Of a stretch of DNA of 64,000 nt, positions 2-21,738 are shown piece by piece; the stretch's first letter is position 1; each line of letters begins with the position of its first letter. The stretch covers positions 256,001 through 320,000 of the forward strand of contig OZ220733.1 of NCBI GenBank assembly GCA_965116875.1. The letters are read 5' to 3'. A program made the translations under genes and the position numbers. The DNA comes from Candidatus Latescibacterota bacterium. GTDB lineage: Bacteria > Latescibacterota > UBA2968 > GCA-2709665. The notes under the pieces were generated by a model. That model had not been told where the DNA came from and searched no databases. It saw only the letters and a program-made list of their open reading frames with translations.

Positions 2-553
2 GGACGTCAGGTTCCAACGGGGTTCCGAACATTTGATTTCCAGCCACGTAAATTTCGGGATTTCATCTGATCCCCAGGCTTCCTTCAACCCGGAGATCGG
101 CAGACTTCCTCGGAACAACTTAGTTGGCGATGGATCTACAATATGTACCATGTCCATTTCGTCGTCGTACCCAGCAAGAATAACGGCGTGAGACGAATGA
201 TGGCCTAGTCCCGGATAGTAGTAACGTTCTAGATAATACGTGTCGGCTACCGCCGGTACCGGAACGCCCTCATCTATTCGCGACTTAGCGCATTTCCAGG
301 CAGTTTCACCATCTCGTTCGTGATGCACTGTTACATGAATACCACATTGTCTTAATCTCGTCTGAAAATGAGTGATACGTGGACTAATTTTCACTTCTGC
401 ACTGCCTTCCAGTTGGTATGAGAAATACCACTCGTCGTGCAATACGGTGGCAGTCGTGTACCCAAAAAACTGCAACATTACATCTAATGCCACATAATCA
501 CAGGGATACGAATCGCAATCGCAGAAAGGAATTCCGGATATAAGTCGTCCCAT
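2..553 (-). CDS. BtrH N-terminal/C39-like (papain-fold) protein, truncated at the left window edge
   Basis: Absent from the ORF track because there is no stop in the window. Manual translation from ATG at 553: MGRLISGIPFCDCDSYPCDYVALDVMLQFFG...RIDEGVPVPAVADTYYLERYYYPGLGHHSSHAVILAGYDDEMDMVHIVDP. The Cys...H-x-V-I-L-x-G-Y-D...V-x-I-x-D pattern is typical of BtrH_N/C39-like proteins. AAGGA precedes the start. Confidence 0.7.
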   Translation of the reverse strand, partial: MGRLISGIPFCDCDSYPCDYVALDVMLQFFGYTTATVLHDEWYFSYQLEGSAEVKISPRITHFQTRLRQCGIHVTVHHERDGETAWKCAKSRIDEGVPVPAVADTYYLERYYYPGLGHHSSHAVILAGYDDEMDMVHIVDPSPTKLFRGSLPISGLKEAWGSDEIPKFTWLEIKCSEPRWNLTS

Positions 554-1325: not shown

Positions 1326-2462
1326 TCAGGGTGTGAAAATGAAAATCTGATCCGTAGTCGACTCCCAATCTTGACTGTCATCCCTCCACTTGATTCCGCC
1401 GGCGACCATCACGCGGCCGTCTTCAAGGAGCGTGGCCGTAGCGAAAGACCTGCGCGGGCTGATGCTGTATCCGGTATTGGAAAATGCGTGCGTGACGGGA
1501 TCATACAGTACGATATCGCCGTTGTACGAGCGGATAAGAAACACGTTGCCGGACGGCAGCAGCAGGGCGGCACTGGGATCGATCGTTGAGACGCCGGCCG
1601 GTGAAAAGGTATTGGCTTCCGGGTCGTAGATCTCCGCCGTCTGCACGGATGGCCCTCTGCCGGAGGCGCCGCCGCCTATGATCAGGACCCTACCGTCCTC
1701 CAGTAGCACCGCCTTATGATTCCTGCGGTCGAACTGCAAGTTGCCTGCTTCCGAAAGGGCTTCGGTCGAGGGATCATAGATAAGATTCCGTCCCAGCAAT
1801 CCTGGGTCCCGTCCAACATTCTGTCCTCCAACGATCAACACCCTGCCGTCCTTCAACAAAGTGGCCGTATGGCCGATTCGGGAAGGATCCATCCTGAGCA
1901 AGGTGGAGAATGGGCCTGTCGTCGGGTCGAAGACACCCGCGTATAACGTGCTGGTCAAGAAGACCTTTCCGTCGAGAAGCAGAGTGGCAGTAAGAATCCC
2001 AATTCTCCGAGGCAAAACTGCCACAGGGTTGAATCTGCCGGAATGAGCATCGTACCTCTCAATGGGGAGATTGGGATTTCCGGGGATGATCAGGACCCGG
2101 CCGTCGGGAAGCAATATTCCGTGGTCCTCGCTGCGACTGGCAGTCAGGTCTCCCGTTGGCGTTGAGGTCCCGGTTTCAGGGTCGAATATTTCCGCACTGA
2201 TGAGACGCTTCGGCTGAGGAATGGGGGTATCCGGGGGAGGCGGCCCTGCGAGTACCAGCGGCAGTTCTTCGAGGCCGCCAGCGATCAGGACCTTGCCATC
2301 GTTCAGTAACGTCGCGGCATGCCAATACCGGGGTCGGGTCAGGTTTCCAACCTCGTGAAGACCCCTTTCAAGGGCCGGCGGCTCTGATGTGGTTACCGAA
2401 TCGCTTCCGCAAGCCCACAAGCTCGTGACGACGAACAGCGCGACCAAGATTCTGGTGGTCAT
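1326..2462 (-). CDS. Kelch/galactose-oxidase-type beta-propeller lipoprotein
   Basis: Lipobox SLWA-C, plus repeated R-x-x-H-x-A-T-L-L-x-D-G-R-V-L-I-x-G-G...A-E-I-Y-D-P kelch units. Confidence 0.9.
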   Translation of the reverse strand: MTTRILVALFVVTSLWACGSDSVTTSEPPALERGLHEVGNLTRPRYWHAATLLNDGKVLIAGGLEELPLVLAGPPPPDTPIPQPKRLISAEIFDPETGTSTPTGDLTASRSEDHGILLPDGRVLIIPGNPNLPIERYDAHSGRFNPVAVLPRRIGILTATLLLDGKVFLTSTLYAGVFDPTTGPFSTLLRMDPSRIGHTATLLKDGRVLIVGGQNVGRDPGLLGRNLIYDPSTEALSEAGNLQFDRRNHKAVLLEDGRVLIIGGGASGRGPSVQTAEIYDPEANTFSPAGVSTIDPSAALLLPSGNVFLIRSYNGDIVLYDPVTHAFSNTGYSISPRRSFATATLLEDGRVMVAGGIKWRDDSQDWESTTDQIFIFTP

Positions 2463-3075: not shown

Positions 3076-3339
3076 TTAGCTGCTCGCCAATTTACCGGAC
3101 ACATAACGAACCATAGAATTCACAGAATCGAAGAGGTCGACGCGTAATTCTTCGTCATCCACCTCAATTCCAAACTCCTGTTCAAGAGCAAAGATGATTT
3201 CTAGTGCGGCAATCGAGTCAACTCCCACGCCCTCGAAAAGCAACTCATCATCGGCAATGTCGTTAGGGTCAATACTCAGGCGGAGTGACTGGACGATCGC
3301 AGATTTTACACGCTGTCCAATGAGCGTCAATTCTTCCAT
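3076..3339 (-). CDS. Acyl carrier protein
   Basis: 87 aa, acidic, with the phosphopantetheine site GVDSI and LEQEFGIEVDDEEL. Its start overlaps the end of the upstream subtilase gene. Confidence 0.9.
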   Translation of the reverse strand: MEELTLIGQRVKSAIVQSLRLSIDPNDIADDELLFEGVGVDSIAALEIIFALEQEFGIEVDDEELRVDLFDSVNSMVRYVSGKLASS

Positions 3340-5243
3340 CCGTTTTTCTTGTCCTCGGTAAAGTGATCGATTGCCACATCAACCGCCTTTTGAATACCCT
3401 CTGCCGACGAAATACATATGGCGGGTAATCCAAAAGACCGTTCCAATTGTCCCAACTTACAGGCTACTTCGGCTTGAGTCAGCGGTCGCGGTCTTATCGA
3501 CGTTCGACCATACCTAGCCTGCACTCCCTTTTCAAAGTCTGACGTGGCTAGCAACAATGTGGGCGCGTGACAAAATGCGCGAATGCCGTTGACCGTGTCC
3601 TGAATATAGTCTTCGGGATCGACACTGTTTACCACCAATATGCAAGCATCAGGCTTCACACCCATTAAAAAAGCAATGGTGGGCAGCGTCAAAGTATGCT
3701 TGTCGCATACGTCATAGGGAACCGTTCCGGATTGGGTACCGACCAAAATGAGATGAGGTCGTGTTTGGTAGCAAATCTCGCGCATCTTCGCATCGAGAAA
3801 CGGAATATAGTATTCAGTCGGAATTCGAACAGAGGGTGCGTAGCCCATTGGAAACCCATAATCCATGCCGAATAGCTCGGAATGATGTTCAGTCCCAATC
3901 TGTGCAATCCGAAACCCTAGTTCTAGCAATCTTCGCCGGAACGCTAATTGAAGGGTAAATTTACCCTGTTGCGAACTCGTACCTACTATAGCCAAAACCG
4001 GAACATCCACTTCGGGGAGCGATGAGCATCCATCGACTGTACGGCTCGCCTCTTCAAACGACAGCTCAGGATAATACAGTCTCAATCCTTTAGAAGCAGC
4101 GACTTCATGCAAGTCACCGTACTCCGCGTGAGGTAGTGCAAGTAGGCTGAACACGTTTACTTCATTATCGAGTGCGACCTGAACGCACTTTCTAAGGAAA
4201 TCGCTCTTACGGATTCGACTCAATTCATCAACGTAACCAAGAATCAGAGTGTCTGCATGCTCCAGACACGCCGACAGCCGGGATGTGATCCGGAGACCCT
4301 TATTACACAGGCCGATTGCTTCCCCTGCATCGCTGCCGACCAATCCCTTTCCGACAGGATCGGATATGCCCACGACCTGAAAGCCCAATAGGTCATTCGC
4401 ACGAACTACGGCGTGCATTTCCTTATTATACGGGTAGAGGCAGGCCTTGCGTATCCACGAGAAGCGATCCTCTGCAGCAGACGGGACCTTGATGGATGAC
4501 GCAGGGTTTGTTACGAGAGGAGGCGCCGTTTCGGATACTGCGTGGTTACTCAGAATCTCACGGATCTGTTGCAAGCAGGCACCAGGGTAAGCCTGCCGGA
4601 TTAGCGCGATCAGACCGGTTATATGTGGCGCAGCGAAACTGGTACCGCCCATCATTATTTCCTTCGGCTCCAACCAACACACCCGTTGGGGGTCGCCGCG
4701 CGCAATGCACTCAATCGGTCGACCGGCGCGATAATAGTAGTCGTACGGGCCAAGCAACGCACCCGAACCGACACCAATGACGTCGGCTAACAACGCAGGA
4801 TACGAGTCACGTCCCTCGTTATTTGCGGATGCTACCAAAAGAGTACCAACGCTGACTGCATTGCGACAGACGTTTGCCAACTCGTCACGATAAGCGATAT
4901 CCGTTGTTCCCAAGCTTAGATTTACAATGTCGATTCCGTGCGCAACTGTCCATTCGATGGCCGCTATGAGCAGTCGTGGTTCCGTCGACAAGGATTCGTC
5001 AAAAACTCGGATACTATAAATTGAGGCGTCCATCGCTTTCCGCCGGATAATACCTGCACAGGCCGTTCCGTGACCCACGCAGTCTTCAAAATCAGAACCA
5101 TAGATTAAATCCCCTGCTTTACCGACTGATATAGAAACCCCGTCTGTCAACGGACCAACCTTCGGGTGGTCCGGCACGATGCCACTATCTATAACTGCGA
5201 CGGCAACGCCGCGTCCGGTCAAGTTTGAAAACGGAAAACTCAT
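3327..5243 (-). CDS. S8 subtilase fused to a DUF1611/TIGR04066-like P-loop domain
   Basis: Catalytic triad motifs VAVIDSG, GHGTACAG and GTSFAAPH, with no signal peptide. The C-terminal part has LYPYNKE...GLVGSDAG and VPVLAIVGTSSQQGKFTLQL...QIGTEHHSELFG. Confidence 0.85.
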   Translation of the reverse strand: MSFPFSNLTGRGVAVAVIDSGIVPDHPKVGPLTDGVSISVGKAGDLIYGSDFEDCVGHGTACAGIIRRKAMDASIYSIRVFDESLSTEPRLLIAAIEWTVAHGIDIVNLSLGTTDIAYRDELANVCRNAVSVGTLLVASANNEGRDSYPALLADVIGVGSGALLGPYDYYYRAGRPIECIARGDPQRVCWLEPKEIMMGGTSFAAPHITGLIALIRQAYPGACLQQIREILSNHAVSETAPPLVTNPASSIKVPSAAEDRFSWIRKACLYPYNKEMHAVVRANDLLGFQVVGISDPVGKGLVGSDAGEAIGLCNKGLRITSRLSACLEHADTLILGYVDELSRIRKSDFLRKCVQVALDNEVNVFSLLALPHAEYGDLHEVAASKGLRLYYPELSFEEASRTVDGCSSLPEVDVPVLAIVGTSSQQGKFTLQLAFRRRLLELGFRIAQIGTEHHSELFGMDYGFPMGYAPSVRIPTEYYIPFLDAKMREICYQTRPHLILVGTQSGTVPYDVCDKHTLTLPTIAFLMGVKPDACILVVNSVDPEDYIQDTVNGIRAFCHAPTLLLATSDFEKGVQARYGRTSIRPRPLTQAEVACKLGQLERSFGLPAICISSAEGIQKAVDVAIDHFTEDKKNGWKN

Positions 5244-5354: not shown

Positions 5355-5846
5355 CTAACCTCCGTCATCGGTCTCGGTTGCCACCGGAAATCCCGCCTCG
5401 GCCCACAACGGCCATCCACCGGAAAGCACCCTGACGTTTGCATATGTGAATTCTCGTGCGAGGCGCCGCGCTACATCATAGCTACTCATACATGTAGCAT
5501 TTGCACAGTAGACGATAATATCGGTATCCGCCGGATAAGGCTCAAGCACACGATGCAATTTGGAAGTCGAATAGTGATATGACAGACGGACAGCACCCGG
5601 AATATGCCCACCATTAAATGCCTCAGCCGAGCGAGCATCTACAAATAACGCTGCTCCCCTGTCATATTGGTGCTTAGCTTCAACTAAATCCAATGTCCCA
5701 ATAGCCTGTTCTTCTAAAGTGCCGACATTTGCAAGAGGAAGTCCAGCCACCGTCCGCCGGGCATAAAACCACTCGGTCAATTGAAGGACGGCACAATACA
5801 TCACAATTAATATGAATACCAGTGAAACTATAACCCATCGCCACAC
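5355..5846 (-). CDS. Membrane-anchored rhodanese-like domain protein
   Basis: N-terminal TM helix, then FVDARS...GHIPGA, active-site loop YCANATCMSS and VLSGGWPLW. Confidence 0.85.
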   Translation of the reverse strand: MWRWVIVSLVFILIVMYCAVLQLTEWFYARRTVAGLPLANVGTLEEQAIGTLDLVEAKHQYDRGAALFVDARSAEAFNGGHIPGAVRLSYHYSTSKLHRVLEPYPADTDIIVYCANATCMSSYDVARRLAREFTYANVRVLSGGWPLWAEAGFPVATETDDGG

Positions 5847-6067: not shown

Positions 6068-7750
6068 TTAATTGCGTGCCGTTGAAAAAAAACTGTTTAA
6101 GAAACTTTGTTTCTGGAGCAACGCCTGAGGTTGACCCTGTTCAACTACGGTGCCGTTATCAATGCAGATCACTTCATCCACATTTCGGACGACGTTTAGT
6201 CTATGACTGATAACTAGGATTGTCTTTCCAGCAAATATCCGTCGGACATTTCGAAGAATCGTGTGTTCATTTTGGGGATCCAAAGCTGCGGTCGCTTCGT
6301 CCATGATTAGCAACTCCGCAGGATTCAACAAGGCTCTAGCAATTGCAAGCCGTTGTCGCTGCCCACCCGACATCTGTACTCCTTGCTCTCCTATAGTTTC
6401 ATGTTGATTCAGATCGTTCAGACCAACCATCTCCATGACGCGGTCGATTTCTGATGAGTTATACCGAGCCGATCCGTACCGGATATTCTCGCCGACGCTA
6501 TCGTGAAATAGGTGGACTCGTTGGCTAACCAAACTGATATTACGCCTCAAGTCCGACAGTTCGAATTCTCGCATTTGAACATTGTCAATGTTGATGCAAC
6601 CTCGATCGGGAAGATGAAGCCCACAAAGCAAATTGGCAATCGTCGACTTTCCACTTCCACTCGCACCTACCAAAGCATACGATTTCCCTTTTGCCATACT
6701 AAATTTCACTCCTCGAAGTACTGTCTGACTCTCAAAACTAAAATAAACATCTTGAAGGTCAATCTGCCTCCCGAAGGTAAACTGTTTTCGTCCAGCAAAA
6801 AAACCAACCTCCGAGGGAATCTGCATAAACTCCAACACGCGACGCATGGAAACCAACCCTCGAACGAGCCCAATGTACATATCGTGCAGGTTCCGGACTG
6901 GCTGGAAAAGACGTACCGAGTACTGTAGGAAGGCAACTAGAGCGCCAAGCGACATGACGTCTTGCATAACCTGATACGCTCCGAATCCCATAATGAAGAG
7001 GGGGGTTAACGCGGCCAACCCTCCTGACACACTATTCATTGAGGCATAGTACAGGACATTGCGCATGATTAATTCAATTAGATCATCCGACATAAAACGA
7101 AATCTATCGGTTTCTCGCCTCGAACTATTCGTAAGTTTAATTAATGAGACGTTTTTAAATCGTTCAATTACGTAGCTGGAGATGTCGGACCCCTTTTTCT
7201 GAATCTTTTCGATATTCCGTCTAATCCTAGGCTGAAAATAGGTCAGATTTAATACAAACAACGGGACGCCGATTACAGTCAGCAAAAAAAGGGAGGCATT
7301 TAGCCACATCAACAATACGATCAGCCCAATCAAAGTCAGGACACTGTGGATCGAGTGCAACGCGCTGGAAGTCAGCATCGACTCAATCACTGCCACATCA
7401 CTATTGAGCCGGTAGACCAAATCTCCTGTCTTTCGATTGTCAAGTGAGCTTATCGGTAAATCCAACAGCTTACGAAACATCCGCACTCGCATATCCCGAA
7501 CAATGCGATTACTGCACCACGCGTAGAGGTAGTTTGATGCGAAAGACAAGATCATATTAGTTAACATCAAACCGCAGAGAAGTCCTATCGCGACTAGAAG
7601 AGTGGTATATTGTTTGGCTGGAATTATGTCATCGATAATCGTCTTCGTAATGTACGGTGGAGCTAAGGAAACCGCAGTGGTAAGGACAAGACAGATCACA
7701 ACGATTAATCCCTTAAAGCGGTAGGGATTCAGGAATTTGGCAAATCGCAC
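6068..7750 (-). CDS. ABC exporter, fused permease/ATPase (no C39 peptidase domain)
   Basis: Multi-TM N-terminal domain, Walker A GASGSGKS, signature MSGGQRQR, Walker B LLIMDE and H-loop SHR. Confidence 0.95.
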   Translation of the reverse strand: MRFAKFLNPYRFKGLIVVICLVLTTAVSLAPPYITKTIIDDIIPAKQYTTLLVAIGLLCGLMLTNMILSFASNYLYAWCSNRIVRDMRVRMFRKLLDLPISSLDNRKTGDLVYRLNSDVAVIESMLTSSALHSIHSVLTLIGLIVLLMWLNASLFLLTVIGVPLFVLNLTYFQPRIRRNIEKIQKKGSDISSYVIERFKNVSLIKLTNSSRRETDRFRFMSDDLIELIMRNVLYYASMNSVSGGLAALTPLFIMGFGAYQVMQDVMSLGALVAFLQYSVRLFQPVRNLHDMYIGLVRGLVSMRRVLEFMQIPSEVGFFAGRKQFTFGRQIDLQDVYFSFESQTVLRGVKFSMAKGKSYALVGASGSGKSTIANLLCGLHLPDRGCINIDNVQMREFELSDLRRNISLVSQRVHLFHDSVGENIRYGSARYNSSEIDRVMEMVGLNDLNQHETIGEQGVQMSGGQRQRLAIARALLNPAELLIMDEATAALDPQNEHTILRNVRRIFAGKTILVISHRLNVVRNVDEVICIDNGTVVEQGQPQALLQKQSFLNSFFSTARN

Positions 7751-7789: not shown

Positions 7790-8482
7790 CTAAAAGGGAT
7801 CACTGAGGACACCGCGCCCCTTGATTAACTCCAATAGAGACATACCGTGCATTTCTTTCAAGGGTGAATCAGCGAAACCCTCAACATTAATCTCAAAAGC
7901 AGGCATATGATTGTAAACAAGATCAACGAAGAACAAGGATGTGAATTGCTCCGCTTGGATTAGAGGAAGGTGGCATCGAATTATCCTGTTTTCTGGACTG
8001 ACAAGAAAAACCACAGGAGTTCGCACGAACAACCCATCGGAATCCTCTGGTTCTAGCGGAACACCTAACTGAAACGTCAACCTGAAGGCTCGCTTAAATT
8101 TAGTCAATTCTGATTGATCCCCATTTGAAATGGCGTAAATCGGCATCTCTAAGGAGTCCTTTAGGTTGTCGTGGATGTGTTGCAGCGCCCGTAATATTAG
8201 ATTGATGCAAGGTTGGCACGAATTCGGCGAAAACAAAAACACCAAGCCGGTCTTTGATCCTGAAAAGTCAGTACTTACCGTATCATTGCCAGTCGTGCGA
8301 ATTGACAATTTTGGAAATCCGCGACCGACTATCAGATCCTGCCGGTAGGTATTGACCACAAACGTGCGGTAAAACCGTAGATCGGTGAGATGTAATTTGA
8401 ATAACCAGGCGAGGGAGACGACTAGACCAATTAGGAAAAGCAGATTCGATACTACCAATAATCTCGTTATCCGCATAATCAT
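7790..8482 (-). CDS. Membrane-anchored thioredoxin-fold (redoxin/TlpA-like) protein
   Basis: N-terminal TM helix, FLFSPNSCQPC CxxC motif and TPVVFLV cis-Pro loop. Confidence 0.65.
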   Translation of the reverse strand: MIMRITRLLVVSNLLFLIGLVVSLAWLFKLHLTDLRFYRTFVVNTYRQDLIVGRGFPKLSIRTTGNDTVSTDFSGSKTGLVFLFSPNSCQPCINLILRALQHIHDNLKDSLEMPIYAISNGDQSELTKFKRAFRLTFQLGVPLEPEDSDGLFVRTPVVFLVSPENRIIRCHLPLIQAEQFTSLFFVDLVYNHMPAFEINVEGFADSPLKEMHGMSLLELIKGRGVLSDPF

Positions 8483-9120
8483 ACCGAAACTTTACAACAA
8501 CCGTCGTTGCAGTCCATAGAGGTTATTGTAGTTTCTCGAATGAATTCTGTACGGTTCAAAACCACAACAAATCGACGGCCAACGGGTATTTGCCCTACGC
8601 TTCGGCGGCCGTCGCACACAGATGTTCTTGCGGGCACTGGTCATCTTCCGAACGCAGGCGCGCATCCTAAGATCCGGACTCACCCTCGACAAGACCACGC
8701 CAAACCACCTACGCAGCGCATTCGACAGACTCGAAACTTTGATCGACCAACATTGCGATCATGCCAAACTCGCTGCTTGAAGCTTGACTCAAACACCACA
8801 AAAACCGCCGACTAAGCAGGCTAGGGCTGCAGAAAGAATGCGCCAACCCAAGCTATTGCCACTGGCTCTCTGTGCTCTTTGCGCTGGATGAAGCCTTCCC
8901 CAAACACGACATCAACCCCGCTGGCCGCGTAAGATCGAAGCGATTTCCCAGCCGCACACTGGCGACAACCAATCCCATAGAATCCACGTTCACCACCGCA
9001 GCAGAGGGATTCTTCGATCCAATGAACAGCACCAATATCATACGTTTAACGTACTTACCGAAGTTAACGAAAGACCGAAATACGGATCCGATCCACCATT
9101 TCAGTCAACGAGAGTAATAC

Positions 9121-9342
9121 CTAAATGTTATACCATTCCGACCAATAGGTATCTCCCGAATTACAAAGGGCAACTTCGATCTCATTCGTGGCATCGCAAG
9201 AATAGTGGTCTCTCCGCTGCAACTGACCATTGTGGCACCTTTTTTCGAATTTGTCGTTGAACCATTGATATCCATCGTACCATTCGTACGCGTATATCAA
9301 TGTATCCTGTCGACGGTTCCGTGGTTTTCGTAGCAAGTTCAT
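9121..9342 (-). CDS. Putative RiPP precursor peptide 2 (73 aa, Trp/Tyr-rich, 3 Cys)
   Basis: RBS AAGGGAGG lies 4 nt before ATG 9342. Sequence: MNLLRKPRNRRQDTLIYAYEWYDGYQWFNDKFEKRCHNGQLQRRDHYSCDATNEIEVALCNSGDTYWSEWYNI. Confidence 0.7.
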   Translation of the reverse strand: MNLLRKPRNRRQDTLIYAYEWYDGYQWFNDKFEKRCHNGQLQRRDHYSCDATNEIEVALCNSGDTYWSEWYNI

Positions 9343-9412
9343 GTTGCCTCCCTTTTGAGAGTTTGAGAATTGGTGGATCGGAATCCGTAGTTTCGGCAAA
9401 TCGCAAAGCAAA

Positions 9413-9601
9413 CCTTGATTCCTCATTTTTCGAGGACTTTTATTTGAATATGTGTCAGTTAAAGAGGTGATTAGACTGCTGACTACCAGGATGCATCAGG
9501 ACACTGTACGTGAACGGAAGAAATGTCCTTCCTTAAGACCATTTCGGCACCATTCGGAGAGTTCCGTCGCGTCGCCGCGTTGCGACTTTTTCGGATCGAG
9601 G
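9413..9601. mobile_element. MITE family A, copy 2 (diverged)
   Basis: Termini CCTTGATTC...GGATCGAGG, flanks CAAA/CTAA, and an internal sequence colinear with the other two copies. Confidence 0.75.
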
Positions 9602-9651
9602 CTAATGAATGAGATAGATGCATCGATCGGATAAATCGACACGATTTACAG

Positions 9652-10875
9652 CTAGTTATTTGCACCAAAGTCAAGCGCATAGACAGCCACATTGCCATTG
9701 GAATTTTCCGACTCTGCTGCCGACGGCTCACTCCATACATACAACTGATCCCGCGAAGATGCTATACTATTCCACGGGACCGATATAACTTCGGATTCGA
9801 GGTGCTCCTTTGCTGACCTACTAAAGTCATAGACTCCGACGGCCTCTTCTGTGTCGAGGTCGTAAATCGACCAGTTGGTAATACTTGCGACGGTCGTGTC
9901 CTCGGTCGTGCCAGGGTTTATGTGCGAAACCATCAAAAATCGACCATGGACGATTGTCATGCTACTTACAGTTGTCATTTTCAATCCTCTCATATCTTCA
10001 CGACTCCCTTGTTCAATTCCATGATACCTTGTCGGCAACGGTACATATCCTTTCGGACGACGACCAAATCGCCTGATGGTTATCCCAGTCTCGGCGTCGA
10101 TTTCTCTAACCATGTAGTCGTTTGGTCCCAGGAAATACAGCCTATTCCGTACCACGCTGTAGCATAGATGCGCAAAGGCTTTCATGCGATATGAGATAAA
10201 CCTCTGGGAATTGGTAGAAAGAGCCACGCGATACACAACATCCCATCCGGACGGTTCAAGGCGTCGCAATTCCATTATCTTCATCGGGTTTACCATCAGT
10301 ACGAAGACCTCGCCCAATCTACCCGTTAACACCCTGGTGGCATGTAGTAACCGTGTCGTGTCCACATGTTTCCCGGCTCTGTCATATCGGACAATCTGGC
10401 CATAAGTTGAATCCAACAGGTACACCATACCCTGCGGGTCTATTGACATATAACGAGCACTGCCATATTCGCCTGGTCCGCGACCCTGACGACCAAACGA
10501 CTGGATATAGCGTCCGTCCGAAAGGTCAAATTCATGTGCTCTTTCACCAATCCGGTCGGTAAGCAGTAGAGTGTTATCCCGTGTCACACCTATCCAGTTT
10601 GCCTCACCAATCCCAGGTGTTTTTTCGTTAAAGTCCAGACTAAATTGGCGCTTCAAATCAAGACCGATTTCGCCGATATATTCCAACTTCGTTTCGTGAA
10701 TGGACTCTTCGTTGGCCTCGTGAGGCGAAGACTTCGAATACGTCTCCTTCGACTGGTCCGGCACTTGTGCAACCGCCCGGCCGTTTCCGGAAACAAGAAC
10801 GACCGTAAGTAAAAAAACAAAAAGACTGAACATTCTTTCCGGCCAATGACGTCCAGCTAACGTGCTCTTCTTCAT
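9652..10875 (-). CDS. Exported 6-bladed beta-propeller (NHL-like) protein
   Basis: Signal peptide ending AVA-Q, NHL-type motif FGRQGRGPGEY and RBS AAAGGAG. Confidence 0.8.
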   Translation of the reverse strand: MKKSTLAGRHWPERMFSLFVFLLTVVLVSGNGRAVAQVPDQSKETYSKSSPHEANEESIHETKLEYIGEIGLDLKRQFSLDFNEKTPGIGEANWIGVTRDNTLLLTDRIGERAHEFDLSDGRYIQSFGRQGRGPGEYGSARYMSIDPQGMVYLLDSTYGQIVRYDRAGKHVDTTRLLHATRVLTGRLGEVFVLMVNPMKIMELRRLEPSGWDVVYRVALSTNSQRFISYRMKAFAHLCYSVVRNRLYFLGPNDYMVREIDAETGITIRRFGRRPKGYVPLPTRYHGIEQGSREDMRGLKMTTVSSMTIVHGRFLMVSHINPGTTEDTTVASITNWSIYDLDTEEAVGVYDFSRSAKEHLESEVISVPWNSIASSRDQLYVWSEPSAAESENSNGNVAVYALDFGANN

Positions 10876-11361: not shown

Positions 11362-12819
11362 TCACTCGGCATCACCTTGATTAACCAATCTTAGATTGTA
11401 CCTCTCCTGCAACAGTTTCTTGTCCGTGTTTTGAATTTCTATACACATTTCCATGGCGAGTTCATAGCTATAACGGATCTGTTCGCACGAGACAGGGTTC
11501 GGATTTATCGGGTCCCCAGTTGCAGTCCGGGCATCATATATACACCCGCCCCCACACAGGTTTCTTGCCCAGCAACGCCGACAGTCGGAACGGGAATCGA
11601 CATGGAACGAATCTTTGAATCCATCCTGGACATTTTCGTCAAGACCAGAGAAGACGTCGCCCATCTTAAACTCCGGCCGGTCGGCAAGACTTGAACAAAA
11701 ATAGATGTCGCCTTCTACATCCACGGCCAGAAATGTCCTCCCGCCTTGACAGCCATAACATGATTTCGCGCGAGTCATTAATCGTTCGATAAAACGGTCG
11801 AAAAATCCTCTCTCGTGCGACCCTTCCAGAATGTTCGCCGTCTCATGCCGGCTTAAACCGCAAAGTCTGCGCTTTATTTCAGGCAGATGCTCCTCGCGCA
11901 GCGCATAAGGTTCTTCAGGTGCAGCAACGACAGGAGCCACTCTAACACGACATGCGCCAAGTTGCCTCAAATCATCAGCAATGGACTCCCTGTCCAGATT
12001 GTACGAAGTCATTGTTGCGCGTACCGATACCTTATCCGGTGACTCTTTCGTCAATTTCAACAGGTTCTCGGCCACCACATTGTACGTTTCACTGCCATCT
12101 CGAAACTTCCGCAGTCGGTTTTGGTCTCTCGGGTTGCCGTCGACACTAACCTGAATGTGAATTTCCTCATCAATTAGAAACTGTAAGATTTCATCCGAAA
12201 TTAGAGTGCCATTAGTTGCGATACCAAAAGAGACCTGAACCCCAACCCGATGGGCATACTCACGGGCAAAGGGAATGATATCTCGAATTAACTCGAAGTT
12301 CAGGAGCGGTTCCCCACCGAAAAAGTCTATCTGACACCTGCCGAACGAGCGAGCTTCACTCAGTGCCCATCGTACAGCCTGCCTTGCTACATGCGGCGTC
12401 ATAAATCCCGGTACCCTTCCGTAGTCGCCGCCATGTGCGAAGCAATAGGTACATTTGACGTTACAGGCGTGCGAAACGTGTAACGTGATGTGAAATTGAC
12501 TCTCACGGGGCTCGGACTCTGGCAATCCGCAGATCCCTTGATCCGGCCCCTGTGTATCTGAATGAAGTTTCAGCGAGGCATCGTATATGAGCTGGGCTTC
12601 GGCAAGGACCTCAACTGCCTTTAACACGTCCTCGCCAGGAAATTCATCGGCCAATTCAAAAACGACTTCCTGGTCCGTTAGTCCGTCGCAAATCTTGAGA
12701 ATCGACTCATAGAGCGGATTCAGTTCAAAGAACAGTCCCGTGTAAACCTGAAACAAAAACGTACGTTTCGACTGGGATGTTCTGAAAAGATGCATTTCAG
12801 ACTTTGCGATTCGTAGCAC
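11362..12819 (-). CDS. Radical SAM/SPASM peptide maturase with N-terminal RRE-like domain (CteB/QhpD/PapB-like, thioether-forming type)
   Basis: CNVKCTYC (CX3CX2C), DFFGGEP, and SPASM CYGCQGG...YFC...CRRCWARNLCGGGC...C. The start is probably GTG 12819 or ATG 12795; the ORF-track start at 12969 overlaps the precursor gene. Confidence 0.92.
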   Translation of the reverse strand: MLRIAKSEMHLFRTSQSKRTFLFQVYTGLFFELNPLYESILKICDGLTDQEVVFELADEFPGEDVLKAVEVLAEAQLIYDASLKLHSDTQGPDQGICGLPESEPRESQFHITLHVSHACNVKCTYCFAHGGDYGRVPGFMTPHVARQAVRWALSEARSFGRCQIDFFGGEPLLNFELIRDIIPFAREYAHRVGVQVSFGIATNGTLISDEILQFLIDEEIHIQVSVDGNPRDQNRLRKFRDGSETYNVVAENLLKLTKESPDKVSVRATMTSYNLDRESIADDLRQLGACRVRVAPVVAAPEEPYALREEHLPEIKRRLCGLSRHETANILEGSHERGFFDRFIERLMTRAKSCYGCQGGRTFLAVDVEGDIYFCSSLADRPEFKMGDVFSGLDENVQDGFKDSFHVDSRSDCRRCWARNLCGGGCIYDARTATGDPINPNPVSCEQIRYSYELAMEMCIEIQNTDKKLLQERYNLRLVNQGDAE

Positions 12820-12860
12820 TTCCTCTGCCCCCAATACCCGACACACAAACAACCGATATA

Positions 12861-13079
12861 CTATTGGGCTGTATGCTTTTCCCGTGGAGTGGGTCCATTC
12901 TGTGATTTTTTGATTGTGACCGCGTTTGTCATTGGTGGCGGCAGAATGGGGAACCACGGCCATTCGCACAACGTCGCTTCAATAGGAGTCGTCGATCCAA
13001 AGCATCCGCAAATTTTCCCCCTATTGTCTGAAACACCGTTGACCGGGAACAGTGAAGGTTTGGGATTATTCAGTGCCAT
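12861..13079 (-). CDS. Putative RiPP precursor peptide 1 (72 aa)
   Basis: Perfect RBS AAGGAGG lies 6 nt before ATG 13079. It is the first gene after the sigma54 promoter and sits directly before the rSAM. Sequence: MALNNPKPSLFPVNGVSDNRGKICGCFGSTTPIEATLCEWPWFPILPPPMTNAVTIKKSQNGPTPREKHTAQ. Confidence 0.75.
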   Translation of the reverse strand: MALNNPKPSLFPVNGVSDNRGKICGCFGSTTPIEATLCEWPWFPILPPPMTNAVTIKKSQNGPTPREKHTAQ

Positions 13080-13183: not shown

Positions 13184-13199
13184 TGCAAACCACGTACCC
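13184..13199 (-). promoter_or_regulatory. Sigma54 (-24/-12) promoter
   Basis: The minus strand reads GGGTACGTGGTTTGCA (GG-N10-GC), close to consensus TGGCACG-N4-TTGCA. It lies about 105 nt upstream of precursor 1 and next to a bEBP gene. Confidence 0.75.
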
Positions 13200-13465: not shown

Positions 13466-16400
13466 TCAACGCAGACCATAACGCGTCATCATCTTCTGAA
13501 GTCCATTTCGGCTGAGACCTAAATGAGCGGCAGTATGAGAAATGTTCCCCTTGCATTTGTCAAGTGCCGCGGCTATCATCCTTTTTTCAAGGGCAGCCAC
13601 CTCCGATTTTAGATGTCCTCGCGAACCTTGTTCGGCGTCTTGACGATGTTCAATCCTCTTCGAGAATAGATCGACGGAAACCTTCTTTCCTTCTTCAACC
13701 AACGCAACCGCGCGTCTTATCTCATTCTGCAATTCACGGACATTGCCCGGCCACGCGTGATCCATTAATCCCCGCATTGCACCCACTGTAAAGCCCAGTA
13801 CTTCCTTTCCCTGCTCCGAAGAAACACGCTTCAGTATATGTTCCGACAACGAAGGGATGTCCTCAATACGGTCACGCAGTGGAGGCATTTCAATCTGTAA
13901 AACGCGCAGCCGGTAATACAAGTCCTCCCGAAAAAGACCGGCACGCACGTCCGCTTCCAGGTCGCGATTCGTCGCTGCAATCACCCGAACGTCTACGTGG
14001 CGAACATTAGTCTCTCCTACTCGCTGTGTCTCCCCATCCTGCAGTACGCGCAACAGGCTTATTTGCAATTGCGAAGAGGCATCCCCGATTTCGTCTAGAA
14101 ACACGGAACCGCCCTCCGCGGAGGCGAATAGTCCCTTGCGGTCGGATGAAGCCCCGGTAAATGAGCCTCTCTTGTGACCGAACAGCTCGCTCTGAAGCAG
14201 TTCGTGGGTAAGCGCCCCGCAATTTGCGGAGAGAAAGGGTTTCGCCTTGCGGTTGCTCCGGGTATGGATAGCCCGGGCGGCCAGTTCCTTCCCCGTTCCC
14301 GTCTCACCCTGTATAAGCACAGTCATGTCGCTTTCAGCCGCCACGTCGACCAGTTTGAACACTTCCTGCATCAGCTGACTCTGTCCGATAAGTTCTCCCA
14401 TTCGGTAGGTGCCCTCGTATTTTTCCTGGAAAAAAAGTGCCTGCTCCTGGCTCCGGGAGAACATCCGGGCGTTGACAACCGCAATGGAGGCCAAATTCGC
14501 AAATGCCGCAAACAAGGCTGTGTCTTCTTCGCGAAACAAATCTTCTAGCTTTCTATGGTCCAAATACAGCGCGCCGATGACACCCGATTCCGCATGCCGC
14601 AGTGGAACGCAAAGCACCGATCGGATGCCGTAGGCCGAAACGCTGGCCCTTTTTCTGAATCGATCGTCAACGCGAGCATCCAGACTCAATACGGGCTCGT
14701 GCCGCTGCATCGACCACCTGATTATTCCCTCGCTGATCTCCCTTGCAGCTAAGTCATCCAGATTATACTTACGCGCAACCTTGACGCGACCGGCTGCCCC
14801 ATCCTCGATAGCAATCAAAACACGTTCGGCCTGGCTCACCTTCTTCAGTCGGTCCAGAATTCGATCAAGTAGCACATTCAGGTCCAAGACCGACGTCAAA
14901 TCTTCGGATACTTCATAAAGGGTCTGCAGATGCTCTTGGGAAAGCGCCGTAACCTTCGCCTCTGGTGTAATAGTCATCGCAGTTTCCTCAATAACCAGGT
15001 TTAGGAGATCCGCTGCCTTTCGGGCCAGATAACGCAGATTCAAGCGTTCGGCAGCCTCACGGGCATTTTCCAGGCACCCTCGGGCATCGGCAAGACGCCG
15101 CCGTTCCAGATAATACGCGCCCGCTACAACGAACAGGTTTACCTGTTCCAAGCCGTCCGGGGAACCCTGGACTTCCAATGCATGATCAATCAGGGAATCG
15201 ACTTCGTCATGACGGTCGGCCGCGACGAGCGATTTCGCCTTTGCGGTCCATGCAATGGCGCGGACATTCCCGCCGTACTCCACGCCCGGCCAGGCCCGTT
15301 CGGCCCAGGCCAGCGCCTCTTCAACACGGCCGGTTTCCGCGAGTGTCTCGGCCAGCAACGCATGGGCGCGGCACATTTCATCGGAGCGGCCGGTACCCGA
15401 CAGAAGCCGCACTGCGGCACCCGCGTGTGCTTCTGCAGCCTCGGCATCTCCGTTTTCCAAGGCAACCCTGCCCAAAAACACGAGTGATCCTGCCTCCGCA
15501 GGTCTCGAACCGCGTTTGGCCCAAAAGTCTTTAAGCTCAAGGAAAATCTCCTCGGCCCGATCAAAATTACCCAACCGATTCTCTGCACGTCCCAAAAGGA
15601 AAAGACAGTTATGGCGATAAGCTCGATCGCCGTTCCTCTCTAATAGATTTAATGAAGAGTCCAGGAGCTTTTTCGATCTGTCATTACGATAAGTAAACTG
15701 CGCTGCAAACCCCAGATGCATCAAAGCACGGGCTTCGTTGATAGACCCTCCCATTTCGCGGCATTTTTCAGCTGCTGAATGACAAAATCCCGCAGCAACC
15801 TCTTTTTTCCCTAGCGCCACGTAGAGATTTGACAACAGACCCAAAACCCTAAGTTCATTCTCCGCCTCGCCCTGATTCCGGAAGAGTTCCAGCGCTTCTA
15901 ACAACATCGACTCAGCTCTTTGGCAGTCCCCGCCATTCACGTAGGTAATTCCTAAAATCCTCAACACATTCGCCCTTTGCGCGGGCATTTCAAAGGACGC
16001 CCACTGCATGGCACCTTCCAACTCGCGGCGCGCGTCTTCGTACCTGCCGCATCCGCAAAGCGCTTCGGAGTAAGCGCAGAGAAAGTCGAGATGCATCACC
16101 GAACCGCGCGCAATGCAAACGGGGGCATCAGGGGAAAACGCGCCTTTTTTGAGAACAGTTCGGAACTGTTCGAGTGCGTGCGAGAAATATTGCATCCCCA
16201 ATGCAAAGCGGCCGGATAAGGTGACGTACCGCGCCATTTTTTCCAGGTCGTTCGATCTCAAAAAGTGATAGGCCAATTCATCCAATGACTCTGCGGCGCC
16301 GCAATCCAACCGTCTTTCTAAGGCGCTGCCTGCCTCCTGGTGAAGCAACGTACGTCTGTTTAACGATATGCCGTCGTAAACCGCCCGTTGGATCAGTCCA

Positions 16401-18352
16401 TGTGAGAACCGATAACGTCCACGAGGGTCCTGCATATCTCTCAAAAGGCCCAGGCTGACGTTTGCATCCACCGTCTCCAATAACTCCAGTTCATCCTCGC
16501 ACCAGACGTCTGAAATCAGCTCGAACGAAAACGCGCCGCGAAAGATTGATGCATATTCCAGCGCCTGCCTTTGGGCCGAACGAAGTCGTCCCAGGCGCAA
16601 CTTGATGGCCTGCATAATGCCCGACGGCATTGGCCATTCCGTCTCCTTCGGCCACCTCCAAATTCCTGTTGAATCCTTCCATATCAAGCCGTCGGCAATT
16701 GCTCCCCGAACCAATTCTACGACAAACAGTGGATTCCCCCCAGTTTCCTGGAAAACCCTACGATTCTCTTCCTCAGGTACAGCCTGTTCTCCAAGCAGGG
16801 ACGCAGCCAGATTCCCAGTTTCGTCCATATCGAGAGGCTGGAGACGAAAATGTTCAGCTCGAGTTCCAATTGGCCCATCTGTCAGGTCGTCGATTCCAGG
16901 GGGTAGCGGATCTTCGTCCACCTTGCGGCAAGCGAGCCCGAAGACGAGAGGTACGGGATCCGGATCTCTCCTCACAAAGTCCAGGAACCGCAGGGTCAGG
17001 TCGTCGGCCCACTGCACGTCTTCAATGCATACAAGGGTCGGCGTTTCCCTGCTCAGATCGACGAGAAGTTCCGACAAGGTCTCCATCGCCGGGTACGGAT
17101 CCGGCTGATCGGCGGGCGCCGGCCGTTCAATTTGCGTAAGAACTCGCTTGACGGATTCTTCCAGGTCTGGACCCCGAACGCCGGTCTGATCGGCCAGGTC
17201 TCGCAGGATTTCCAGGAATGGCCCAAAGGCTTGGCCCCCGCTCTCATAGCAACGTCCTGATTGTACGCGCATTCCGTTGACGCGGGCGTCGGCCTGGAAT
17301 TCTTCAAGAACTTGGGTCTTCCCGATGCCAGCACTGCCGCTCACGAGAATGATGCGCCCTATACCCTCGCGAGTATCCTGCAGGATCTTCCGTAGAGCCT
17401 TCATCTCACGTTCTCGACCCTGGAACTGGGGTTGGAAAACGGGAACGTCTGGGGCACCCAAGACAGGCCGCATTGAAACGGTAGCTTCGTCACCGTCTCT
17501 ATAGAATCCGCTTTCCTCGTTATTCGTCAAATCATACAGCAAGCTCCCTACCGAACTGTAGCGGTCAATGGGTTCCTTCTCGAGAAGCTTCATTACTGAC
17601 TCTTCGATCCCCGAGAAATCTTCGCCGGTTACAAGGTGCGGAGGGCGCGGCAATTCTTTCAGATGCTGAAGCAATACCGTTGCTGGATCTTCTCCCGTGA
17701 ATGGTGGTTTCCCGGTAAGAATCTCGTAAAGAATGACTCCCAATGAATAAAGGTCGGATCGCTGGTCAACTGCCTTTCCCCGGATCTGTTCGGGGGACAT
17801 GTACTCCAAGGTCCCGGTAGCCGCTCCGGGAGCCGAGAGGCGTTCCTCCCTTACATCTCTAAATCGCGCCAGACCCAGGTCCAGAATCGTAACCTCGGGC
17901 TTACCCTCAATCTCTGAAATCATAATATTTGAGGGCTTCAGGTCTCTGTGCAACACACCCTGTTCATGGATGTATCCCAACCCTTCTACAGTCTGGCGGA
18001 TAAAGGGAACGAGCCACGCGGATTTTAGCTTTTCACGATCATCTACTCCTGAAATCAGGTCGGACAAGGGACGACCATGGACAAAGTCCATGGAAAAATA
18101 CGGACTCCCGTCGTGCGCGCCCCAGCTGTGTGAAATAACAACTCGAGGATGTCGGATTCGAGACAAGATATTAAACTCCCTCAGAAATCGCCTTTGTGCC
18201 CCGTCCCCCGTGAGATCTAATATCTTAAGCGCTGTAATGGAATTTTTCCGTACGTCCCGCGCACGATAGACGGTACCTAAACCTCCATTTCCAACGGTAT
18301 TGAGGATCTCGTAACACCCGTCGACAACCGTGCCAGCCTTTAATTCGGACAT
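13466..18352 (-). CDS. Ser/Thr kinase-AAA-TPR-GAF-sigma54 enhancer-binding protein with Fis-type HTH
   Basis: Kinase motifs [20 protein letters not shown] and YMSPE; NTPase GSAGIGKT; TPR-like helices; GAF (IRSVLCVPL); bEBP motifs [30 protein letters not shown] and WPGNVREL; C-terminal HTH. Confidence 0.95.
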
Positions 18353-18642
18353 ATTTAACCCTGCGAAGAATAACTCTCGTTTACGATTCCTGATTCGTTG
18401 ACGTTTTGTCTATTGACACATCAGGAATTGTCCACAGATGCCGACGTTTAAATGACCGTCAAGCATAGCGATTCTTGTGGCTCGACACCGCGTTCAACGA
18501 TTAGCGTTCAACCCCTTCGAACCCACCGCCGAATTGGCCGGGGTTGGGCGGTCTGACGGCTGATGTCTGACAGCTTCTTCCCGTTAAATTCCATTGGAAC
18601 CCATTGGGGGCGCGACGCACCAGTCAGATTTCCATTCAACAA

Positions 18643-20020: not shown

Positions 20021-20065
20021 CGATGAATGACAAGCTCTATCACTTTTGATCGCATGCTGGCAGTT

Positions 20066-21082: not shown

Positions 21083-21738
21083 GAAATACGCCCCCGGCGG
21101 TACCGGAGGCGCATTTGGAAAATGGACCTTGTGCGAAGTGCAGGCAAACGGTCGGTTCGGCTTACAAACTGCTCGGGAGATGACGATGCAAAGTCAGCAT
21201 GGAAAGAATACCGCGAGCCTTCAAGCCTCTTCTCTGCAGCCCAGAACTCCTGTGTTTTTAATCTCTCGTTACAAGCATCGGAAATCACACCCATGCTAGA
21301 ATTCTGATCATACATAACGTCTAAGTAAGCTACTTACCCTTTACTTTGCAACCGCCGGCGCTCTTTGGGAGCGTCTCGTTCACGCCAACTCGATACCCAT
21401 CCGCCAGTCTGTGATTGAAAGCCTGCGGCTCAGTTTGCTCAATTTGATGGAACCGTGGGAACCACATCCGGCAGAATATAGGCCGGAAGGCTCGAACTGT
21501 CAAGTACAGGTTAGGGAATATAAAATAGCGCCGTTTTTCAACAGAACCGGGGCGTTCTTGCGATTCTGACGGAAAACGACAACGAGCCGCTATCGCAAGA
21601 AAGCGGACCGGTCGGAGCAGTTCATTCATCTAAGGCGAGGAATAACTAGACTGGATGCCGAATGGATGTGATGTGCAGAATTGCACCGCATTGTATCGGA
21701 AAGGCGTCCCACCCTTGTATCTCGCGACCGGAATGCAA

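Follow-up and report, generated by a model that had tools for sequence, protein, structure and literature searches.

The window analysed here is a stretch of 64,000 nucleotides from a Candidatus Latescibacterota bacterium (assembly GCA_965116875.1, contig OZ220733.1, positions 256,001 to 320,000). On its minus strand lies a gene that joins an S8 (subtilisin-like) protease to a domain resembling the families DUF1611 and TIGR04066, and this fusion gene is overlapped at its 3' end by a gene for an acyl carrier protein (ACP). The two genes and the parts of the fusion protein were located as follows.

3327..5243, minus strand: fusion gene, an open reading frame (ORF) of 638 amino acids (aa) with S8 protease, linker and DUF1611/TIGR04066-like domain
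4530..5243, minus strand: S8 (QhpE-like) protease domain, residues 1-238, from Pfam, the NCBIfam QhpE model, the catalytic triad and Foldseek
4470..4529, minus strand: flexible interdomain linker, residues 239-258, with a predicted local distance difference test score (pLDDT) <50 and a variable length in homologues
3330..4469, minus strand: two-lobed DUF1611-fold domain, residues 259-638 (380 aa), from the structure model, Foldseek and profiles
3954..3983, minus strand: P-loop GTSSQQGKFT, residues 421-430, from conservation and alignment to 2g0t
3076..3339, minus strand: ACP, 87 aa, from a PP-binding match; 13-nt overlap with the 3' end of the fusion gene

The ATG of the ACP gene sits within the final codons of the fusion gene, and the 13-nt overlap appears to couple its translation to that of the fusion. 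The fusion gene showed 99% identity to locus L001, on the chromosome of a Candidatus Latescibacterota metagenome-assembled genome (compared loci are numbered in this way throughout). An assembly or annotation artefact as the source of the fusion was ruled out, as the same architecture was found in the best 120 homologues and in 14 loci of named genomes.

The N-terminal half matched Peptidase_S8 of Pfam (PF00082, residues 10-235) with an E-value of 2.3e-28 and 99.8 bits, against a gathering cut-off of 21.8. Its best NCBIfam model was QhpE (NF049966, residues 15-236), with E 4.7e-42 and 143.8 bits, under the cut-off of 165. The triad D19/H58/S202 was invariant in 48/48 aligned homologues, and the presumed oxyanion residue Asn142 was retained in 36 of these 48. 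The D-H-S order was kept in 115 of 128 fusion representatives; 12 had gaps at a triad column and one had A-H-R. The latter, P0153 (637 aa), may be an inactive protease. Foldseek matched the S8 half to subtilisins with E ~1e-15 and a template modelling score (TM-score) normalised to target of ~0.70. D19 is only 19 residues from the start, which would leave space for neither a signal peptide nor a prodomain. Membership in the QhpE family was rejected, both on the score and because the genes for quinohemoprotein amine dehydrogenase (QHNDH) are missing: neither its subunit genes qhpABC nor qhpG were detected among the cluster proteins by Pfam and NCBIfam. The assignment of the S8 half as a probable cytoplasmic leader peptidase is well supported by its homology to QhpE.

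In the whole-protein model (pLDDT 81.8, predicted TM-score (pTM) 0.59), residues 239-258 were predicted to be disordered. The counterpart of this segment in the 48 homologues was Pro/Ser/Ala-rich and 24-76 residues long. Low pLDDT and variable length together mark a true flexible linker, and the pTM of 0.59 means that the position of the S8 half relative to the C-terminal half is undefined in the model. Structural matches of the whole-protein model were mostly subtilisins, with 2g0t appearing only at rank 31 (Foldseek against the PDB).

The C-terminal domain was also modelled on its own (residues 260-638), for which an alignment of 74 representatives, 27-55% identical to the window's domain, was used. 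This model reached a pLDDT of 96.1 and a pTM of 0.92, and had one Rossmann-like and one P-loop lobe. Its top PDB match was 2g0t (TM0796) with E 2.8e-14. Next came 7xrj, titled 'crystal structure of N-acetyltransferase DgcN-25328', with E 3.1e-13, and 2obn, titled 'duf1611 family protein', with E 1.7e-12. Each of the three had a probability of 1.00 and a TM-score normalised to target of 0.61-0.71 over about 390-405 alignment columns; 2G0T and 2OBN reached 0.70-0.71 over 386-407 columns. The next-best matches had E-values of at least 1.9e-7 and TM-scores normalised to query <0.4. These weaker matches comprised the IcmF G-domain, DapB, cDPG synthetase, the succinyl-CoA synthetase alpha subunit, MurC/D, SRP GTPases and ArsA.

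Sequence comparisons agreed with the fold only at a distance. The C-terminal P-loop domain of DUF1611 (PF07755) was matched by residues 411-612 (E 1.1e-9, 38.4 bits vs a cut-off of 25), and the DUF1611 N-terminal domain (PF17396), precomputed for many homologues of 52-63% identity, was not reported for the window protein at E<=0.01. TIGR04066 matched residues 266-558 of the whole protein with E 1e-29 and 103.7 bits, and the C-terminal domain alone with E 2.3e-30 and 105.8 bits, both under the cut-off of 200. When the C-terminal domain was searched against the PDB as a single sequence, DUF1611 entries were missed, and what matched was weak, DapB-like and confined to the Rossmann lobe. A 22-sequence profile of the domain did retrieve 2g0t among the PDB sequences (E 9.2e-6), and it aligned the P-loop GTSSQQGKFT with GTDCVVGKRT of that structure. 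G421, T422 and Q432 were invariant in 74 diverse sequences, and G427, K428, T430, E452, Q504, N539 and D542 were retained in >=90% of them. It is well supported that the C-terminal half is an enzyme-like domain of DUF1611 fold with a conserved P-loop and a polar pocket; its kinship to DUF1611 and DgcN is distant.

What the initial annotation had read from this gene and its surroundings was confirmed: a compact cytoplasmic S8 domain with a full triad, a short linker to a TIGR04066/DUF1611-like domain, an overlapping ACP gene and an ABC exporter without a peptidase domain. The DUF1611 fold, on which its interpretation had been made to depend, was likewise recovered, in the matches to 2G0T, 7XRJ and 2OBN. 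The interpretation itself, that the protease removes a leader and the fused domain acylates the new N-terminus, is partly supported, as discussed below.

The fusion belongs to a large family. Of 8000 candidates scored in a word-indexed search, 790 were homologues at E<=1e-3. The top 120 all combined PF00082 with PF07755 and were 52-100% identical over 93-100% of the query; those named by their source were labelled 'S8 family serine peptidase' or 'NAD-dependent epimerase/dehydratase family', with Gemmatimonadetes and Spirochaetales among the sources. An exhaustive search with the C-terminal domain alone found 340 representatives at E<=1e-30, a number that rose to 1247 at E<=1e-3. The S8 half was also present in 128 of the best 150 of these representatives, as judged by a hidden Markov model (HMM) of that half, and many of the 22 without a match were plain fragments or began within the S8 tail. 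When 129 domains were placed on a quick maximum-likelihood tree, the standalone forms (11 rows) fell in scattered positions that needed 11 changes, which argues that the fusion is the ancestral, normal state within the clade. Ten standalone-looking relatives scored 47-119 bits on TIGR04066, so that the true split TIGR04066 clade of Bacillota is a more distant sister. Neighbours in the ESM Atlas point to the same placement, and one of the nearest clusters is named TIGR04066. P0211 (728 aa) starts with the C-terminal domain, matches it in three stretches and lacks the S8 half, which may point to a tandem duplication. L010 is a short contig of 1606 bp, binned as a Thermoplasmatota archaeon, with a partial fusion gene 47% identical to that of the window; its archaeal assignment may be a binning error.

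The constant companion of the fusion is the ACP. The window ACP matched PP-binding (PF00550) with E 8e-12 and 45.7 bits vs a cut-off of 20.8, and its attachment residue Ser42 was invariant in 13/13 neighbouring ACPs. The ACP-related family TIGR04069 has a cut-off of 70; the window ACP gave no match to it at E<=0.01 and the ACP of L013 scored 19.8 bits. The genome scan covered 80 of 564 confirmed S8-relative loci, 16 with the fusion and 64 with a QhpE-like S8 domain only (mostly Actinomycetota). Three truncated fusion loci (L004, L010, L012) were left out of the 13 with flanking DNA. An HMM found the ACP at 13/13 of these fusion loci, a count that holds by construction because the HMM was built from their ACPs, vs 0/64 S8-only loci. 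The ACP gene lay directly downstream of the fusion in 10 loci and 4 kb downstream in L014. In two Bacillota loci it was directly upstream, with a small ORF for a Cys-containing peptide in between. The ACP-paired loci span at least four phyla, with Latescibacterota, KSB1, Rosettibacter, Erysipelotrichaceae and Acetatifactor as sources. Given 13/13 against 0/64, the ACP travels with the DUF1611-like domain and not with the protease, and we infer that the two act together.

The remaining gene content of the fusion loci was more variable. L015 and L034 are minimal cassettes with only radical SAM, ACP, small peptide ORF, fusion and ABC genes, so no enzyme but the fusion could serve the ACP there. 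Their small ORFs adjoin the fusion (L015 3510-3629, L034 9659-9787) and have Lys-rich N-terminal and Cys-containing C-terminal parts. A radical SAM maturase was found near the fusion in the window and L001, L011, L013, L015 and L034. A Pfam scan of neighbourhoods covered 87 proteins from 9 loci; L006, L008 and L014 were set aside for their unreliable ORF calls. In this set, export genes (ABC, MacB, HlyD, RND) were recurrent around the fusion, and GNAT genes occurred only in L013, after the ACP. L011 (Rosettibacter) had two further genes beside the pair: at 8431..9996 a 521-aa protein of no known family precedes the fusion and overlaps its start, and at 12220..13068 a nucleotidyltransferase of the streptomycin-adenylyltransferase family follows the ACP.

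In the window, the fusion and the ACP are part of a cluster in which all genes are on the minus strand. The order is kinase/sigma-54 activator, candidate precursor, radical SAM, beta-propeller, 101-aa ORF, thioredoxin-fold protein, ABC exporter, rhodanese, fusion, ACP, 103-aa ORF, Kelch protein and BtrH_N/C39_2-like protein. The neighbours discussed here are listed below.

2..553, minus strand: BtrH_N/Peptidase_C39_2-like protein (Pfam), cut at the window's edge; candidate ACP-dependent acyltransferase
5355..5846, minus strand: rhodanese-domain protein, 163 aa, with an N-terminal hydrophobic segment (Pfam Rhodanese, E 1.3e-17)
6068..7750, minus strand: ABC exporter, 560 aa, of MsbA/QhpF type (ABC_membrane 16-285, ABC_tran 345-488)
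7790..8482, minus strand: thioredoxin-fold protein (AhpC/TSA-like), membrane-anchored and carrying a CQPC motif (Pfam AhpC-TSA at E 7.6e-5, under the cut-off)
11362..12969, minus strand: radical SAM/SPASM peptide maturase of nif11/SCIFF/PapB/QhpD type (Pfam Radical_SAM; NCBIfam)
12861..13079, minus strand: candidate precursor peptide of 72 aa with three Cys, encoded immediately upstream of the radical SAM gene; in L001 at 1686..1904, plus strand
13466..18352, minus strand: 1628-aa regulator with Ser/Thr kinase, AAA_16, TPR, GAF, sigma-54 activator and HTH parts (Pfam, NCBIfam), upstream of the cluster

The best NCBIfam matches of the radical SAM protein had E-values of 1e-68 to 1e-73, all under their cut-offs; QhpD scored 229 vs a cut-off of 453. 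Its true start is probably Met residue 59, at about nt 12795, rather than the listed GTG that overlaps the candidate precursor. The ATG of the latter is preceded, at a distance of 5 nt, by AAGGAGGA. Between window and L001 the candidate precursor had many residue differences, one Cys included, in nearly identical flanking DNA, and it looks like a peptide with a hypervariable core. No conserved precursor family emerged from an all-against-all comparison of 2343 small ORFs (12 fusion loci plus the first 22 kb of the window), in which only ACPs and shadow frames of real genes formed clusters. The 101-aa ORF (9121..9426, minus strand) is Trp/Tyr-rich, has three Cys and a possible inner start, is 97% conserved in L001 and matches no family; it is a possible second precursor or a small accessory protein. 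In the spacer from this ORF to the thioredoxin-fold gene, L001 (5646..6762) has ~477 bp more than the window (8482..9121), an indel between genomes that are otherwise 97-100% identical there. No recognisable leader-recognition protein (RiPP recognition element, RRE, where RiPP stands for ribosomally synthesised and post-translationally modified peptide) was among the Pfam and NCBIfam matches of the cluster.

The ABC exporter had only ABC_membrane and ABC_tran matches in Pfam and no C39 peptidase domain. L002 and L006 had copies of 55-56% identity, and most fusion loci encoded a more distantly related ABC exporter. A rhodanese gene also lay upstream of the fusion in L002 and L006, relatives of the thioredoxin-fold protein were found in L002, L006 and L012, and L003 had a Redoxin protein. 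The rhodanese carries a Cys in the region of its active-site loop. Both this protein and the CQPC protein have N-terminal hydrophobic segments and flank the exporter, which suggests sulfur or disulfide chemistry on the exported peptide.

The BtrH-like protein is complete in L001 (335 aa, BtrH_N + DUF4872). There, the region 14688..21913, which extends past the left edge of the window, encodes this full protein, a HlyD-type adaptor and two AcrB-type RND pumps, and L002 had the same BtrH/HlyD/AcrB order. BtrH_N was matched with E-values of 1e-12 to 1e-13 in the window/L001 and L002, and of ~9e-6 in L005 and L009. Cys18, His119, His122 and Asp131 were invariant in 4 sequences. In L008, short fragments at 9477..9601 (minus strand), 78% identical to the BtrH-like gene of L007, look like a decayed copy.

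The 1628-aa regulator also matched a TOMM system kinase/cyclase fusion model, below cut-off. At 13184..13199 (minus strand), ~105 nt upstream of the ATG of the candidate precursor, lies a sigma-54-like -24/-12 element with correctly spaced GG/GC and 2 consensus mismatches; L001 has the identical stretch. Such an element is in keeping with the neighbouring sigma-54 activator gene; as the pattern was not enriched in the window (15 found vs 23 expected), the site is a lead only. Promoter-like sites (5 vs 3.7 expected) and terminator-like sites (5 vs 4.5) between 2300 and 6200 were at chance level. The window from 21000 to 64000 encodes a TonB-dependent receptor, a sulfatase, heparinase II/III-like proteins, a GH123-like protein, UxuA, an enolase-superfamily protein, a gamma-glutamyltranspeptidase and a ceramidase-like protein. 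It is a region for the degradation of carbohydrates and glycosaminoglycans, unrelated to the peptide cluster, and no fatty-acid, polyketide or AMP-ligase genes were found in it.

Cassettes with similar parts have been catalogued for years, with two of the parts left without an assigned role. Roseburia intestinalis L1-82 has separate genes for a radical SAM protein (TIGR04068), TIGR04066, the ACP-related TIGR04069, a subtilase and an ABC transporter (PMC4573289), and the sacP23 cluster of Paenibacillus polymyxa #23 has the same parts, also as separate genes (PMC10731318). Expression of the sacP23 cluster in B. subtilis is reported to give a peptide with antimicrobial activity (m/z 3404), eluting at 60-70% acetonitrile. 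Its Edman degradation failed, 'indicating a blocked N-terminus', and the authors point out that sactipeptides and circular bacteriocins often have blocked termini (PMC10731318). For the protease, the described precedent is QhpE, a single-turnover enzyme that cuts the 28-residue leader of the cross-linked QhpC before ABC export (PMC7876137). Our literature searches retrieved no biochemical function for TIGR04066-like proteins and no description of the fusion; where TIGR04066 appeared, it was unexplained or guessed to be 'immunity'. Searches on DUF1611, TIGR04068, TIGR04069 and BtrH together with RiPP added nothing relevant.

We favour a reading in which the fusion is a processing enzyme of a RiPP-type pathway and would form, with the neighbouring ACP, a two-step cytoplasmic machine. 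A precursor encoded in this locus would probably be cross-linked by the radical SAM enzyme before the first step, in which the QhpE-like S8 domain would cut off the leader. In the second step, the fused DUF1611-fold domain would move a phosphopantetheine-bound acyl group from the partner ACP, instead of acyl-coenzyme A (acyl-CoA), to the freshly exposed alpha-amine. The capped peptide might then exit through the peptidase-less ABC exporter and the downstream pumps of the membrane fusion protein (MFP)/RND type. That the S8 domain removes the leader and the fused domain caps the new N-terminus with acyl-ACP is a tentative proposal, to which we give somewhat less than an even chance. It is plausible, if unproven: we infer which way the group is transferred, what accepts it and which acyl group it is. 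Capping by the fused domain was ranked first for three reasons. No pair other than fusion and ACP is invariant, the minimal cassettes of Bacillota have no other candidate enzyme for the ACP, and the sole characterised member of the fold is an N-acyltransferase while the product of a sister cassette has a blocked N-terminus.

Several observations weigh against capping by the fused domain. Identity to the canonical DUF1611 structures was 15-16% (16% for 7xrj), at a root-mean-square deviation of 5.6-6.4 A. The DUF1611 motifs TGQTG and EGQG, aligned in 2g0t, are replaced by GTE(H/P) and xQSG, and NCBIfam searched with the C-terminal domain at E<=10 returned TIGR04066 only, with no DgcN-type match. 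DgcN uses acetyl-CoA and a free amino acid, whereas the presumed donor here is the ACP and the presumed acceptor a peptide. The P-loop fold would also fit an ATP-using enzyme, as Mur ligases, succinyl-CoA synthetase and cDPG synthetase were among the weaker matches. The blocked N-terminus of SacP23 fits cyclisation or pyroglutamate as well, and the SacP23 proteins belong to the true TIGR04066 clade, from which the window domain is distant (103.7 bits vs the cut-off of 200). No radical SAM gene was found within ~7 kb of the fusion in L003, L005, L007 and L009. The source of the acyl group is unexplained, since neither the window nor the 9 scanned neighbourhoods yielded an acyl-activating or chain-building gene (AMP-ligase, ketosynthase, acyltransferase). 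Lastly, the BtrH_N/DUF4872 protein, whose family takes its name from an ACP-dependent acyltransferase, or the GNATs in L013, could be the real capping enzyme; HMM searches detected BtrH-like relatives in 7/13 fusion loci, that of the window included, vs 0/64 S8-only loci.

This last point leads to the main rival reading, which we regard as rather unlikely. Here the DUF1611-like domain would charge the ACP, either from acyl-CoA by DgcN-like chemistry directed at the pantetheine thiol or from free acid and ATP via an acyl-phosphate. Capping would fall to another enzyme: the BtrH-like Cys-His protein in loci that have it, in L013 a GNAT, or conceivably the serine of the S8 domain. Besides its restriction to fusion loci, the BtrH_N/DUF4872 gene directly follows the ACP in L005, L006 and L009. 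Its products have an invariant Cys and His, and one weakly matched the NCBIfam model 'BtrH-related acyltransferase DarH' (E 7.6e-6). No other ACP loader is encoded in the window and the neighbourhoods scanned, and ATP-dependent, carboxylate-activating P-loop relatives are among the weaker fold matches. However, six of the 13 loci had no BtrH-like gene in the DNA analysed (L003, L008 with its remnant only, L011, L013, L015, L034), so that nothing dedicated to unloading the ACP would be left there, and the sole characterised enzyme of the fold is, by its PDB title, an N-acetyltransferase and not a thiol acyltransferase or a ligase. The absence of acyl-supply genes would be accounted for if no external donor were used. 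Some S8 enzymes, e.g. PatG, perform transamidation, and the ACP thiol might resolve the S8 acyl-enzyme to a peptidyl-S-ACP, from which the DUF1611-like domain would form a new amide by ligation or by cyclisation, either head-to-tail or through a side chain. Such a relay would also account for the fusion of protease and transferase-like domain in 128/150 representatives, and a head-to-tail ring would fit the blocked N-terminus. It is clearly improbable all the same: the small ORFs of L015 and L034 show the usual order leader then core, which would leave the leader, and not the core, on the acyl-enzyme, and QhpE, the closest characterised protease, is described as simply hydrolysing its substrate (PMC7876137).

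The C-terminal domain might also not be a transferase. As a nucleotide-dependent regulator or chaperone, it would gate the protease or hand the peptide to the exporter, with the ACP-like protein as an acyl-free scaffold or leader binder. Its SIMIBI-type P-loop fold has GTPase and ATPase relatives (MeaB/IcmF, SRP, ArsA), the cluster has no recognisable RRE protein, and a single-turnover enzyme such as QhpE invites regulation (PMC7876137). We consider this improbable, as the attachment Ser was invariant in 13/13 ACPs, which argues for a functional prosthetic group, and the DUF1611/DgcN structures were the nearest by far, with E ~1e-13 vs >=1e-7 for any NTPase. We give almost no credence to a protective role of the C-terminal domain in the producer. 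Its basis is the suggestion of the SacP23 authors, who guessed from an annotation link to H+-ATPase that the TIGR04066 protein SacE is an immunity factor (PMC10731318). The window protein is soluble, fused to a cytoplasmic protease, of DUF1611 fold and always paired with an ACP, and the immunity reading of TIGR04066 was rejected as naming the wrong kind of protein.

If capping by the fused domain is correct, its implications reach beyond this locus. The TIGR04066/DUF1611-like domains could then be a new family of ACP-dependent, non-GNAT peptide N-acyltransferases, the fusion a self-contained enzyme coupling cleavage to acylation, and the products a widespread class of N-capped RiPPs. This wider proposal is possible, and held a shade more tentatively than the capping reaction itself. 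Its N-capped, possibly lipidated peptides would be made by Latescibacterota, KSB1, Ignavibacteriota-type bacteria, Gemmatimonadota, Spirochaetota and Bacillota. More boldly still, the S8 serine or the ACP thiol might relay the acyl or peptidyl group, which would make the enzyme a natural 'subtiligase'. The fusion serves as a Rosetta stone: it physically ties a domain without known role to leader removal, and the 13/13 vs 0/64 distribution ties the same domain to the ACP. A function would be gained for several hundred uncharacterised representatives (340 at E<=1e-30, 1247 at E<=1e-3), RiPP N-acylation would gain a new enzyme fold and the DUF1611 fold a new chemistry, and the blocked N-terminus of SacP23, a peptide that acts against methicillin-resistant Staphylococcus aureus, would be explained. 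Should the capping reading fail, the family would still be a conserved three-part module.

Two known systems were compared for their acyl transfer. In the butirosin pathway, BtrH acylates an amine with the group carried by the ACP BtrI. The window resembles this pair in having an ACP and a papain-like Cys-His BtrH_N protein in one cluster, a likeness that concerns the neighbouring gene, and differs in that a peptide, and not an aminoglycoside, would be acylated. GNAT-type N-acyltransferases of lipidated RiPPs (goadvionin GdvG, selidamides) reportedly move acyl groups from ACP or CoA onto the amine of a ribosomal peptide. Unlike in those pathways, the fold in the window is a DUF1611 P-loop fold and not GNAT, and there is no fatty-acid or polyketide machinery to load the ACP. 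By fold, the one characterised relative is DgcN, which we take to be an acetyl-CoA-dependent D-glutamate N-acetyltransferase. The title of 7XRJ says only N-acetyltransferase, and what the initial annotation states of DgcN stands at that level. The sources on dgcN describe an irreversible route of D-Glu racemisation in which it is the key gene, naming the pathway and not the reaction (PMC12363236, PMC10845958). With DgcN and the DUF1611 structures 2G0T and 2OBN, the C-terminal domain shares the two-lobed fold, the aligned P-loop and a PF07755 match above cut-off; no dgcA-type neighbour or racemase gene was detected near the fusion by Pfam and NCBIfam.

By gene content, the window was compared with two systems. 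As with QhpE, the S8 domain is compact, apparently cytoplasmic and without a prodomain, and it is encoded near a QhpD-like radical SAM/SPASM enzyme and a peptidase-less ABC exporter. Unlike QhpE, it carries a C-terminal domain and has an ACP as neighbour, with no QHNDH subunit genes or qhpG. The TIGR04066/TIGR04069/TIGR04068 cassette of Bacillota has a matching set of parts: radical SAM maturase, TIGR04066 protein, ACP-like protein, subtilase and ABC transporter all have counterparts in the window. It differs in that the subtilase and the TIGR04066-like protein of the window are one polypeptide, scoring under the curated cut-offs, in the diderm host phyla, and in the addition of BtrH-like, rhodanese, thioredoxin-fold and RND/MFP genes. 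The window system is thus a fused, diderm-phylum version of a catalogued, uncharacterised RiPP maturation cassette.

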